1,815 nt of DNA, from sequence record OR845673.1. The stretch is one strand, 5' to 3'. The position numbers were made by a program, and so were the translations under genes. Below are positions 160 through 1,815 of this stretch, piece by piece (the stretch's first letter is position 1; the number at the start of each line of letters is the position of its first letter). The notes below the pieces were generated by a model. It worked only from the letters and a program-made list of their open reading frames with translations, made no database searches and was not told the origin of the DNA. This DNA comes from Escherichia phage ECO95 1-6-1.

Positions 160-734
160 TGAAAAAATATCAGGATATTAAAAATTTCAGACTGATTGAC
201 GCGCCTGTAAACAGGGGTAAAACTCAGGCCGAAATAAATATAGGTGCATATTTTCTGGAGTCAGAAGACGGGCAGGACTGGTATGAGTGTCAGTCATTAT
301 TTTCTGATGATACTGCAAAAATAATGTACGACCATGAAGGGGTTATCTGGGGTGTCGTTAATCAACCAGTCCCGCAACGTGGAAACACATATGCTGTATC
401 AATGTTGTGGCCGGTTAATATGTCTGTTGCGGAAATAGACGCTGCTGACTGTCCTGATGATTGCCGTGGTGATGGTACGTGGTTATATCAGGACGGTAAA
501 GTCGTTCAGCGGGGTTATTCTCCGGAAGAGCTGCGTAAAAAGGCGGAAGCTGAAAAAATTCGTCGCCTTTCTGAAGCTGAATCAGCCATCGCACCACTGG
601 CACGGGCAGTAAAACTAAAAATTGCCACAGATGAAGAGATTAAACGGCTTGAAGCATGGGAACTCTACAGCGTAATGGTTAACCGTGTGGATACAGCTTC
701 CCCTGACTGGCCGGAGGTACCGGATGTGGCGTGA
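159..734 (+). CDS. tfa: Tail fibre assembly protein (chaperone), lambda Tfa / P2 gpG / Mu U family, 191 aa
   Basis: ORF in frame 3 ending at TGA 732-734. I take ATG at 159 as the start (MKKYQDIKNF...) because a GGGGGA Shine-Dalgarno sits 8 nt upstream at 145-150; the track's start at 129 is a GTG inside the upstream gene. From memory, the protein matches the family signature: an N-terminal ...SEDGQDWYE...IMYDHEG... block and a C-terminal ...LSEAE..IAPLARAVKL.IATDEE..RLEAWELYSV.VNRVDTASPDWPEVP tail resembling P2 gpG (…ATDEE.ARLE.WERYSV.V.RVD…PEWPE.P). Recognition is by recall, not a search. Confidence 0.88.
   Translation: MKKYQDIKNFRLIDAPVNRGKTQAEINIGAYFLESEDGQDWYECQSLFSDDTAKIMYDHEGVIWGVVNQPVPQRGNTYAVSMLWPVNMSVAEIDAADCPDDCRGDGTWLYQDGKVVQRGYSPEELRKKAEAEKIRRLSEAESAIAPLARAVKLKIATDEEIKRLEAWELYSVMVNRVDTASPDWPEVPDVA
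713..717 (+). promoter_or_regulatory. Ribosome-binding site (GGAGG) for the 241-aa hypothetical gene
   Basis: Canonical GGAGG 6 nt upstream of ATG 724, embedded in the last codons of tfa. Confidence 0.6.
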
Positions 735-1449
735 AGCGCGTCTGGCTTTTACGGATTCTCTGGCTGCGCTGGATTGTTCTGTCGTTCCGGCGCATCCGTG
801 GATTCACGGTCTGGGGCAGCAGACAGATAACGGGGCATACCTGAGTCCGGTCAATGCAATCCATTATCTGGCGGAAAGGCTGGCCGGAACGGGAGGCAAT
901 ACCGATGTGGTGATCATGATGATAACGGGACAGACCCATGAAAACTTCATGAAGGGGCTTAACAGCCTGGTGGATGTTTTCCCCGCGCCCGCATTCACCC
1001 AGGTCAGACGTCTGGCTGAGTCTGCGGCGACACTGGCTACTGAGAAAATGCAGATCCCCGCGAAAGCCGGGGCAGGACTGCCGGTTGCCATTCCGCTGTC
1101 CGTTCCGACCAGCAGGGCAGCGTTATCCGCTGCTGCTATCAGTGAGGCGCAGAAAGCGGCTGGCGCCGGATTCAGCCTGGACGGGCTGAAACAACAGCTG
1201 GGGGAATTTACGCAACTGCGTGACAGCCTGATTAACGATGTGGCCAGCGGCCTTGCTGATTTGCAGGGGAAAAGCGCCAGGGCATGGGTATTTACGGCCA
1301 GTGGCGACACCGCCGCCACTCTTCTGGCGCTGGTAAAGGACATTCCGCAGCCTTCAGCCGTTTATACTGCGGCAATCATGCTGGCCGGAAAAAATCTTGA
1401 TGGAATAAGGGGCATGATTCATGACGTCGATCCCGACACTGGCGCTTAA
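724..1449 (+). CDS. Hypothetical protein, 241 aa, function unknown; phage-associated, with an Ala/Pro/Gly-rich central segment
   Basis: ORF in frame 1 ending at TAA 1447-1449. Preferred start is ATG 724 (MWREARLAF...), preceded by GGAGG at 713-717 with a 6-nt spacer; the track's 685 start is a GTG without a Shine-Dalgarno. It overlaps the tfa 3' end by 11 nt. Codon usage is typical of enterobacterial genes (CTG, GCG, CCG, GGC). I recognise no catalytic or structural motif and see no transmembrane segment; by my count the protein is mildly acidic (22 D+E vs 17 K+R). Confidence 0.72.
   Translation: MWREARLAFTDSLAALDCSVVPAHPWIHGLGQQTDNGAYLSPVNAIHYLAERLAGTGGNTDVVIMMITGQTHENFMKGLNSLVDVFPAPAFTQVRRLAESAATLATEKMQIPAKAGAGLPVAIPLSVPTSRAALSAAAISEAQKAAGAGFSLDGLKQQLGEFTQLRDSLINDVASGLADLQGKSARAWVFTASGDTAATLLALVKDIPQPSAVYTAAIMLAGKNLDGIRGMIHDVDPDTGA
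982..1173 (+). other. Low-complexity Ala/Pro/Gly-rich segment within the 241-aa hypothetical protein (about residues 87-150)
   Basis: Translation PAPAFTQVRRLAESAATLATEKMQIPAKAGAGLPVAIPLSVPTSRAALSAAAISEAQKAAGAGF is strongly biased toward A, P, G and S. It separates an N-terminal block (residues 1-86, with GTGGNTDVVIMMITGQTHENF) from a C-terminal block (residues 151-241). Confidence 0.5.
1407..1412 (+). promoter_or_regulatory. Ribosome-binding site (AAGGGG) for the 3'-truncated hypothetical gene
   Basis: Shine-Dalgarno-like AAGGGG 8 nt upstream of ATG 1421, inside the 3' end of the preceding gene. Confidence 0.5.
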
Positions 1450-1815
1450 TGGTGAGGCCATACTGCTGAAAAACATGCGCGTGACCGTTTCCCAGCAGTT
1501 TCAGGATAAAGACCAGTCCGGTCAGACCAGCGCGACCACCAAATCAGAGCAGGGGGCAAAGGGCAAAGAGCTGCGTATCAGCGGCGAAATACCCTTTAAA
1601 AACCCGGAGATCCTGAAGCGTATTTTTGAACTGGCCAGCGCCACTGATGCAGACGGGAAACGCATGAAATACCGCGTTGCGCATGAGGTGGCCAGAGCGG
1701 TGAATTTTCGTGAGGCCACCTTCAGCGGAATGCTGGATGCACCGCCGCAGGACGGGAAAATGGCCTGGCTGGTCACGTTCACCCTGGCGGAACATGTCAG
1801 CGTACAGGAGAAGCG
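1421..1815 (+). CDS. Hypothetical protein, N-terminal 131 codons; 3'-truncated at the window edge
   Basis: Frame 2 is open from ATG 1421 to the window end with no stop (MTSIPTLALNGEAILLKNMRVTVSQQFQDKDQSGQTSATTKSEQGAKGKELRISGEIPFKNPEILKRIFELASATDADGKRMKYRVAHEVARAVNFREATFSGMLDAPPQDGKMAWLVTFTLAEHVSVQEK...). AAGGGG at 1407-1412 lies 8 nt upstream of the ATG. The start overlaps the end of the previous gene by 29 nt. Not in the ORF track because no stop lies in the window. No motif recognised. Confidence 0.62.
   Translation, partial: MTSIPTLALNGEAILLKNMRVTVSQQFQDKDQSGQTSATTKSEQGAKGKELRISGEIPFKNPEILKRIFELASATDADGKRMKYRVAHEVARAVNFREATFSGMLDAPPQDGKMAWLVTFTLAEHVSVQEK

Follow-up and report, generated by a model that had tools for sequence, protein, structure and literature searches.

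Homologues of HP1 orf33 and orf34 behind the tail fibre assembly gene of an HP1/ESSI-2-type phage: probable members of a baseplate hub block

In the HP1 subgroup of the Peduoviridae the tail genes share an annotated order—TMP, DUF2590 (gpW-like), J, I, fibre, tfa, orf33, orf34 and hub-spike—which is seen in HP1, vB_YenM_324, ESSI-2, K139 and ESSI2_ev239. In HP1 itself the hub-spike gene, which comes after orf33 and orf34, is orf35. This arrangement differs from that of P2 in two ways: HP1-type phages have a fused hub-spike, and their block comes after tfa instead of the tape measure gene. The tube initiator of P2 is gpU, six copies of which are placed on the gpD hub (P2 cryo-EM preprint 10.64898/2026.09.14.750843). 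Small proteins fix the wedges to the core made up of hub and tube initiator; these include P2 gpX and T4 gp53—two LysM ‘glue’ proteins—and Pam3 gp18, an Ig-like plug without a LysM domain. A more distant relative of HP1 orf33 has been described in the Pseudoalteromonas phage ACA1, where gp46 is annotated as ‘HP1 orf33; detected by mass spectroscopy’ (PMC10612066).

The DNA analysed here, referred to as the window, is a stretch of 1,815 nucleotides (record OR845673.1) and is 100% identical to part of an unannotated Salmonella phage contig, OR850886.1 (L001 below). Its features are collected in Table 1. The genes are closely packed: the tfa ATG overlaps the fibre stop codon (TAATG), gene 2 (stop codon TAA, 1447–1449) overlaps the end of tfa by 11 nt, and gene 3, open at the window edge, shares 29 nt with gene 2. 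In L001 gene 3 is complete at 181 aa (L001:4988–5533) and is directly abutted by a 567-aa hub-spike gene. The ORF listing offers a longer alternative start for gene 2, GTG 685, but ATG 724 is favoured because the homologues of five phages all begin with M-W. A sequence-only reading of this DNA had described a 241-aa ORF and an overlapping ORF from position 1421, both coupled to tfa with no room for a promoter or terminator of their own. All of this is borne out: no sigma-70-like site is seen on the + strand across the window, and terminator-like matches are weak. The expression of genes 2 and 3 would rest on translational coupling to the fibre and tfa genes ahead of them. Both are real genes; the family of gene 2 comprises 209 clusters at 50% identity, and its dN/dS of 0.07–0.17 indicates purifying selection.

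Table 1. Features of the window, in window coordinates
Feature	Position	Strand	Basis or remark
Tail fibre gene, 3' end	1..159	+	last 52 codons, stop TAA 157-159; PHROG tail fibre families
Low-GC fibre-C/tfa cassette, right-hand part	1..721	.	identity break, GC, exchange pattern
tfa (191 aa)	159..734	+	Pfam Caudo_TAP 4.9e-31; phrog_136 1.8e-63
Shine-Dalgarno GGAGG	713..717	+	6 nt 5' of gene 2 ATG, within tfa CDS; read from sequence
Gene 2, 241 aa, HP1 orf33 homologue (phrog_1677)	724..1449	+	profile match, synteny
Shine-Dalgarno-like AAGGGG	1407..1412	+	8 nt 5' of gene 3 ATG, within gene 2; read from sequence
Gene 3, codons 1-131 of 181, HP1 orf34 homologue	1421..1815	+	Pfam PF25759; predicted tail-tube fold

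The closest annotated relatives of the locus are ESSI-2 and the ESSI2_ev phages (Seongnamvirus, Evevirus), and HP1 (Hpunavirus) shares with it the orf33–orf34–orf35 block, with all three families in the same order after tfa and with overlapping starts. It differs from HP1 and ESSI-2 in its Salmonella host and in its fibre-C/tfa cassette, which has been replaced by one common to ST64B, Fels-2 and SJ46. The 3' end of the fibre gene matches phrog_454 (3e-15), and the fibre genes of ST64B, F1055, 118970_sal3, SJ46 and Fels-2 show 91–95% nucleotide identity to that of the window. The full fibre gene lies at L001:1393/1486–3726 and the whole cassette at L001:2511–4288, its left edge falling at about L001 2511. 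On the right, megablast identity to unrelated Salmonella phages ends at window positions 715–721, which puts the junction just 5' of the gene 2 start codon. The Tfa proteins are only 27–70% identical among loci whose backbones are 98–100% identical. On these patterns fibre-C/tfa is a swapped, horizontally exchanged receptor-binding cassette, the exchangeable unit of HP1/ESSI-2-type phages. The sequence-only reading had correctly noted that the segment carrying genes 2 and 3 is the GC-richer one; GC is 0.42–0.46 in fibre-C/tfa against 0.54–0.60 in gene 2, gene 3 and the hub gene, and the low-GC segment is the cassette, not genes 2 and 3.

Gene 3, in which that reading had recognised no motif, carries the signature of Pfam PF25759, HP1_ORF34, a baseplate complex protein. 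The full-length protein scores 183.9 bits (cutoff 27) over model positions 2–176 of 180, and the window fragment 160.1 bits. A hub-spike gene follows orf34 directly in L001 and in 210 of the 214 loci surveyed. The protein is predicted to adopt a tail-tube beta-sandwich fold, followed by a linker and, beyond the window, a C-terminal helix (residues 167–179), so that at the level of the predicted fold it has both the tube fold and the C-terminal extension of the tube initiators of contractile tails, a class that includes T4 gp48/gp54, P2 gpU, Pam3 gp17 and pyocin PA0626. In these respects, as well as in its similar size and its place directly 5' of the hub gene, it resembles P2 gpU. The two differ in that no sequence similarity is detectable between them: gene 3 gave no Pfam match to PF06995 (Phage_P2_GpU) at E up to 0.1, and the orf34-family alignment reached an hhalign probability of 0.2% against gpU, a comparison that was also negative for the orf33 family. 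For the ACA1 homologue of orf34, Hardies and co-workers independently reported an HHpred match to gpU, which they flagged as uncertain (PMC10612066). Judged on its predicted fold and position, gene 3 very likely encodes the tube initiator of the baseplate. The homologue in vB_YenM_324 has been labelled ‘adenine glycosylase’, and no result obtained here supports that label. The annotation of vB_YenM_324 also carries a ‘structural protein’ label; a literature search found no paper on this phage.

Gene 2 lacks a Pfam motif, as the sequence-only reading had it, yet it belongs to a catalogued family, HP1 orf33 or phrog_1677, whose function is unknown. With gene 3 in a named Pfam family, neither gene is undescribed in the sense first proposed. 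Gene 2 matches phrog_1677 at 2.6e-81, all of 79 diverse orf33-family members also match it, and tblastn finds HP1 orf33 (9e-12) as well as K139 orf37 and its ESSI-2 counterpart, each at the same position. Identity to the window protein is 82% for ESSI2_ev239 gp03, 61% for ESSI-2 and 25% for HP1 orf33. The profile match, together with its place after the fibre/tfa module and before orf34, puts gene 2 in the orf33 family. That position is strongly conserved. Homologues occupy it in HP1, HP2, F108, K139, kappa, ESSI-2, SW3/SI7, vB_YenM_324 and ACA1, and a survey of 238 loci found one immediately 5' of orf34 in 232 of them, or in 37 of 39 lineages when these are defined at 90% identity. Across loci, the identity of gene 2 to the window protein tracks that of J, I, orf34 and the hub (r 0.98–0.99), whereas tfa correlates with those four at 0.40–0.58 and with gene 2 at 0.44. 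The earlier expectation that sheath or tube genes should follow tfa holds for P2 itself; in the HP1 subgroup both lie upstream.

ACA1 provides the link to the virion. Its gp46 and gp47 are homologues of genes 2 and 3, in the same order 5' of hub and spike; in this phage, however, hub and spike are encoded separately and a diversity-generating retroelement lies between the fibre gene and gp46. By hhalign, the gene 2 family matches gp46 at 97.3% (E 2e-11), with about 17% identity over an aligned region that leaves out the N-terminal 60 residues, and the gene 3 family matches gp47 at 99.3%. In purified ACA1 virions gp46 was seen by mass spectrometry with two spectra in one experiment, and the orf34 homologue was not detected (PMC10612066). 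Virion proteomics had been proposed in the sequence-only reading as a check. Of the alternatives which that reading had offered, the one of virion or tail-associated proteins is right, in view of synteny, co-divergence and detection in ACA1 virions, and gene 2 is probably a component of the virion baseplate.

The best explanation of the locus as a whole, held with somewhat more confidence than doubt, is that a baseplate hub block of three genes, orf33, orf34 and orf35, closes the late operon of HP1-subgroup Peduoviridae and that genes 2 and 3 open this block, with gene 3 as the tube initiator and gene 2 as a conserved, low-copy, connector-type virion protein. Subunits of the gene 3 product, with their tube fold, would assemble into a ring on top of the trimeric hub-spike (orf35), from which polymerisation of the tail tube would start; the C-terminal helix probably extends as far as the wedge, as it does in P2 gpU and Pam3 gp17. 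The role favoured for gene 2 is that of an inner-baseplate connector, which would tie the core of hub and tube initiator to the gpJ/gpI wedges and would then stand in for the missing LysM glue (P2 gpX, T4 gp53) or for the Pam3 gp18 plug. No match to LysM/gpX, gpU or gpD was found in ten scanned ESSI2_ev239 proteins or in the L001 hub (the sheath, tube and lysis proteins of ESSI2_ev239, which were outside the scan, were identified from annotation), and HP1-type genomes contain no candidate for the glue or plug role other than gene 2. The likeness is nevertheless one of position and elimination, and at 241 aa gene 2 is far larger than gpX (67 aa). Neither the window protein nor any of the 79 family members has a Pfam match to LysM (PF01476) or Phage_tail_X (PF05489) at E up to 0.1; a YLSPxNAxxxLAxKL motif considered as LysM-like was dropped, as the pattern misfits by eye and the family is without a LysM match. 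The glue- or plug-like role is accordingly offered as a tentative one.

Structure prediction adds little here. Apart from coiled-coil noise (FlgN, in 3 of the 79 members), neither the single gene 2 sequence nor the 79-sequence profile matched anything in Pfam, NCBIfam, PADLOC or the PDB sequences. The best AF2 model has a pLDDT of 50.7 and the other four 35–39; it is too poor for docking. Comparison of the model with solved baseplate proteins gave no fold match, which is uninformative at this quality. Secondary structure is predicted, at low confidence, to be alpha/beta with a long helical insertion.

The strongest competitor is that gene 2 encodes a non-structural or transiently bound assembly factor—a chaperone or scaffold for the hub-spike or baseplate—and not a stoichiometric component. 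Gene 2 directly follows a chaperone gene, tfa, the helical middle of its product is long, variable and rich in Ala and Gln, and it has changed more quickly than the genes around it (in one comparison it is 82% identical where J, hub and orf34 reach 90–94%). A clade of five loci in two lineages, moreover, keeps orf34 and the hub with the other baseplate genes intact but has no orf33 homologue within 6 kb on either side, even by profile comparison; unless these elements are defective, the orf33 protein is not indispensable to every baseplate of HP1 type. The two ACA1 spectra are also a small signal. Normalised to mass (SC/MW), however, that signal is 0.09, in line with what that experiment gave for established baseplate proteins (gpW 0.08, gpJ 0.05, gpV 0.06), and the authors report no detection of proteins unexpected in the virion (PMC10612066). 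Since gene 2 also co-diverges with the baseplate backbone and not with the fibre cassette, an assembly factor is considered rather unlikely.

Less likely again is an accessory role, in which the gene 2 product would be a dispensable virion protein carried by the spike or hub, such as a decoration of the spike or a passenger ejected together with it or with the tape measure. It would modulate penetration or early infection instead of building the baseplate, and might have an unseen fold. Such a protein would explain the faster evolution of gene 2, its clean loss in the clade described above, where the hub-spike is about 80 aa shorter and lacks one beta-helical spike segment, and the lack of a match to solved baseplate components; it would also fit the low copy of the homologue in virions. 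That the spike is shorter where orf33 is missing reflects a single evolutionary event, though, and is no correlation, so that a contact between orf33 and the spike was kept only within this improbable reading. The absence of fold matches carries no weight with the present model. Gene 2 has neither a detectable signal peptide nor a membrane segment, and no catalytic-looking motif or enzyme-like conserved residues appear in the alignment of the 79 members, in which L40, A45 and P208 are the only positions conserved at 90% or above.

The first suggestion made for these genes, that they are moron, defence or virulence cargo inserted after tfa, appealed to the P2 cargo site, where Z/fun is annotated. 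In some relatives extra DNA does separate the fibre module from orf33 (a retroelement in ACA1, extra ORFs in two further loci, L181 and L182), but it lies 5' of orf33 and not inside it. The criteria set in the sequence-only reading itself, a conserved position and detection in virions, refute cargo, and the two points which that reading had raised against it, coupling and backbone-like GC, were sound. Against the 232-locus synteny, the co-divergence with baseplate genes, the backbone GC, the lack of a + strand promoter, the predicted tail-tube fold of gene 3, the gene 2 homologue in virions and the absence of any PADLOC-DB match for either protein (E up to 0.1), this reading has almost no probability left. 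Presence/absence polymorphism, which had been named as a sign of cargo, gives way in the comparison of related loci to near-universal conservation, the five-locus clade lacking orf33 aside; every close relative has a gene 2 homologue except one deletion remnant (L067), and the distribution is not patchy. Genes 2 and 3 are almost certainly backbone tail genes.

The value of the finding is mainly corrective, and overall it is an ordinary one. In HP1/ESSI-2-type prophages of Salmonella and other Enterobacteriaceae, the genes after tfa should be annotated as baseplate core and left out of screens for defence or virulence cargo; the labels proposed are tube initiator for orf34 and orf33-family virion protein for orf33. 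A modest interest remains in gene 2. HP1-type tails form the second major tail lineage of the Peduoviridae, and orf33, the sole conserved protein of their tail module without an assigned fold or role, bears on the completion of its parts list.

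The two genes that follow the tail fibre assembly gene (tfa), here gene 2 and gene 3, belong to an HP1-type baseplate hub block, as its orf33 and orf34. The genes of the window had been accurately described by the sequence-only reading: the ORFs overlap, no promoter-like site is found on the + strand of the window, and terminator-like matches are weak. The overlaps are 11 nt between tfa and gene 2, which has GGAGG upstream at 713-717, and 29 nt between genes 2 and 3, with AAGGGG upstream of gene 3 at 1407-1412. A mechanical ORF list gives a GTG at 685 as an alternative start for gene 2; the ATG is preferred because the homologues of ESSI-2, vB_YenM_324, HP1 and K139 all begin M-W.

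Genes of the window and the basis for each
Feature	Position	Strand	Basis
Tail fibre gene, last 52 codons	1-159	+	sequence
tfa	159-734	+	Caudo_TAP 4.9e-31, phrog_136 1.8e-63
Gene 2, 241-aa ORF	ATG 724 to TAA 1449	+	ORF
Gene 3, ORF leaving the window at the 3' edge	from ATG 1421	+	ORF

OR850886.1, an unannotated 7.8-kb contig of Salmonella phage S.Kent 1-2-1, is 100% identical to the window. It encodes J (Baseplate_J 7e-23), a gpI-like protein (Tail_P2_I), a 777-aa fibre, tfa, gene 2, gene 3 (181 aa) and a 567-aa protein whose weak Phage_base_V and Gp5_C matches point to a fused hub-spike. A matching order is annotated in HP1 (Haemophilus; orf27 to orf35), vB_YenM_324 (Yersinia), ESSI-2 (Cronobacter), K139 (Vibrio) and ESSI2_ev239 (Escherichia): tape measure, DUF2590 (gpW-like), J, I, fibre, tfa, X, Y and 'baseplate protein'. 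With gene 2 as query, tblastn places a homologue at X in the ESSI2_ev phages (82% identity), ESSI-2 (61%), SW3/SI7 (48.5%), vB_YenM_324 (43%), HP1 (orf33, 25%, E 9e-12) and K139 (orf37). The window comes from a Peduoviridae member of the HP1 subgroup, in which the sheath and tube genes lie upstream. The earlier comparison was with the gene order of P2, where these genes come after tfa and Z/fun. The orf34 homologue of vB_YenM_324, gp34 (L003:6698-7243), carries the RefSeq label 'adenine glycosylase', which is supported by nothing found here and looks like a misannotation; the adjacent orf33 homologue is labelled 'structural protein'. In the Salmonella contig, outside the window, GC drops to 0.39-0.46 in the terminal stretch 3' of the hub-spike (L001:7236-7841); the late operon may end there, or the stretch may be a cargo or attachment region.

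The same reading had raised the possibility that genes 2 and 3 are accessory cargo. A survey of 238 loci anchored on orf34 homologues was assembled from reference phages and from IMG/VR, scanned three times with enterobacterial, HP1 and K139 seed sequences, and all six-frame ORFs were searched with family profiles. A gene 2 homologue lies directly 5' of orf34 in 232 of the 238 loci (37/39 lineages at 90% identity), and the hub directly follows orf34 in 210/214. Across loci, identity to the window proteins in gene 2 rises and falls with that in J, I, orf34 and hub (r 0.98-0.99); for tfa, r is 0.44 against gene 2 and 0.40-0.58 against the backbone genes, and tfa is only 27-70% identical in loci whose backbones are 98-100% identical. 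The dN/dS of gene 2 (0.07-0.17) is similar to that of its neighbours, and its dN is the highest in the block. GC is 0.53-0.59 in J, I and the N-terminal fibre and 0.42-0.46 in fibre-C and tfa, and the higher GC noted earlier for genes 2 and 3 is borne out, at 0.54-0.60 including the hub.

ACA1 is a Pseudoalteromonas phage of the HP1 subgroup, and its gp46, an HHpred match to HP1 orf33, was detected by LC-MS/MS of virions (2 spectra; coverage 6%; SC/MW 0.09); gpW, gpJ and gpV gave 0.08, 0.05 and 0.06 in the same experiment (PMC10612066). In GenBank it carries the remark 'detected by mass spectroscopy'. In hhalign, the gene 2 family profile matches gp46 with 97.3% probability (E 2e-11, window-protein residues 61-232); for the adjoining gp47 against the gene 3 profile the probability is 99.3%. 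Virion support for the gene 2 family is thin, being two spectra from one distant homologue, but virion detection at a conserved position is what the sequence-only reading had named as refuting cargo. Together with synteny, co-divergence with the baseplate backbone and backbone GC, it shows the cargo reading to be wrong.

The low-GC stretch (L001:2511-4288, its right end being window 1-721) comprises the C-terminal ~405 codons of the fibre and tfa. Fibre/tfa genes 91-95% identical to it occur in unrelated Salmonella phages, namely lambdoid ST64B and F1055, the P1-like plasmid phage SJ46, P2-like Fels-2, and 118970_sal3; the mobile piece is therefore a receptor-binding cassette. It ends at window 715-721, 3-9 nt 5' of the gene 2 ATG, and the N-terminal part of the fibre goes with the ESSI-2-type backbone (81% identity to ESSI2_ev129). 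The exchange is a clean host-range module swap. In ACA1 (L245:7382-10588), a diversity-generating retroelement, with antireceptor, accessory variability determinant and reverse transcriptase, lies between the fibre/tfa genes and orf33, and two or three additional small ORFs occupy the same slot in L181:3747-5114 and L182:3195-5114. This slot is the truly variable one of HP1-type tail modules.

Gene 3 matches PF25759 ('Bacteriophage HP1 ORF34 baseplate complex protein') with 183.9 bits in full and 160 bits for the window fragment (cutoff 27). An AlphaFold2 model of a full-length homologue (98% identity), made with 33 sequences, reaches a pLDDT of about 90 in its core (residues 7-125). In the model, beta strands surround a single helix, an internal loop and a linker are disordered, and residues 167-179 form a C-terminal helix. 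In the P2 virion, six gpU sit on the gpD hub trimer, where the tube starts, and the gpU C-terminal helix touches the wedge (10.64898/2026.09.14.750843). Pam3 gp17 behaves similarly, with a tube start and a wedge-contacting C-terminal helix. The predicted fold of gene 3 shares this layout, and its position before the hub gene is also shared. Sequence similarity to P2 gpU is not detectable by hhalign, and the ACA1 authors regard the HHpred link of their orf34 homologue to gpU as only 'uncertain' (PMC10612066); the role is therefore named by predicted fold and context. Gene 3 can be annotated as a putative tube initiator, not as a gpU family member. K139 orf38, of the orf34 family (L005:5782-7136 holds orf37 and orf38), does not have the conserved C-terminal helix TWFERKVLKPVNDALG of the enterobacterial proteins.

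Gene 2 has no match in Pfam, NCBIfam, PADLOC or PDB sequences, whether searched alone or as a profile of 79 members. All 79 family members match phrog_1677 (function not assigned), and the family is small: an exhaustive scan of 1.84 billion cluster representatives with its profile recovers only 209 clusters. It occurs in an HP1-type tail module wherever genomic context was inspected. An enzyme role is not suggested, because conservation of at least 90% is reached only at L40, A45 and P208. K139-type orf33 proteins have ~55 additional N-terminal residues relative to gene 2, and ACA1 gp46 has no similarity to the first 60 residues of the gene 2 product.

Most plausibly, gene 2 is a conserved virion protein acting as an inner-baseplate connector. 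In P2, wedges are glued to the core by six gpX subunits (10.64898/2026.09.14.750843). The parts list of ESSI2_ev239 (gene 2 homologue 82% identical), from annotation and Pfam scans of ten of its proteins, comprises gpL, gpR, gpS, sheath, tube, chaperone, tape measure, gpW-like, J, I, fibre, tfa, orf33, orf34 and hub-spike; the ten scanned proteins gave no match to a LysM/gpX-type 'glue' protein. By elimination and position, orf33 is the connector candidate, and would tie wedges to core in HP1-type baseplates in the role of P2 gpX.

Five IMG/VR loci of two lineages (L183, L187, L188, L191 and L199; region 5000-8000 of each) hold J, I, orf34 and hub, together with a short fibre and one or two small variable ORFs. 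An orf33 homologue is absent within 6 kb either side, and profile comparison of each intervening ORF was negative. Their closest relatives, L181 and L182 (orf34 66-76% identical), retain orf33, as well as about 80 residues of spike beta-helix that are missing from the five hubs. Prophage contigs of 33-34 kb, a length typical of a complete element, are the source of two of the five. The five elements may be defective; if they are not, some baseplates do not require orf33. Confidence in an essential glue role is accordingly reduced. A clade with orf34 and hub that does without orf33 also keeps alive the alternatives that gene 2 is an assembly factor or an accessory virion protein. The sixth exception, a close relative (L067:5566-6513), is a defective prophage remnant in which a deletion joins the J N-terminus in frame to orf34, taking out J-C, I, fibre, tfa and orf33.

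The window sequence is already in GenBank, and the orf33 and orf34 families are both catalogued. Overall interest is low; gene 2 represents a modest remaining question for phage structural biology.
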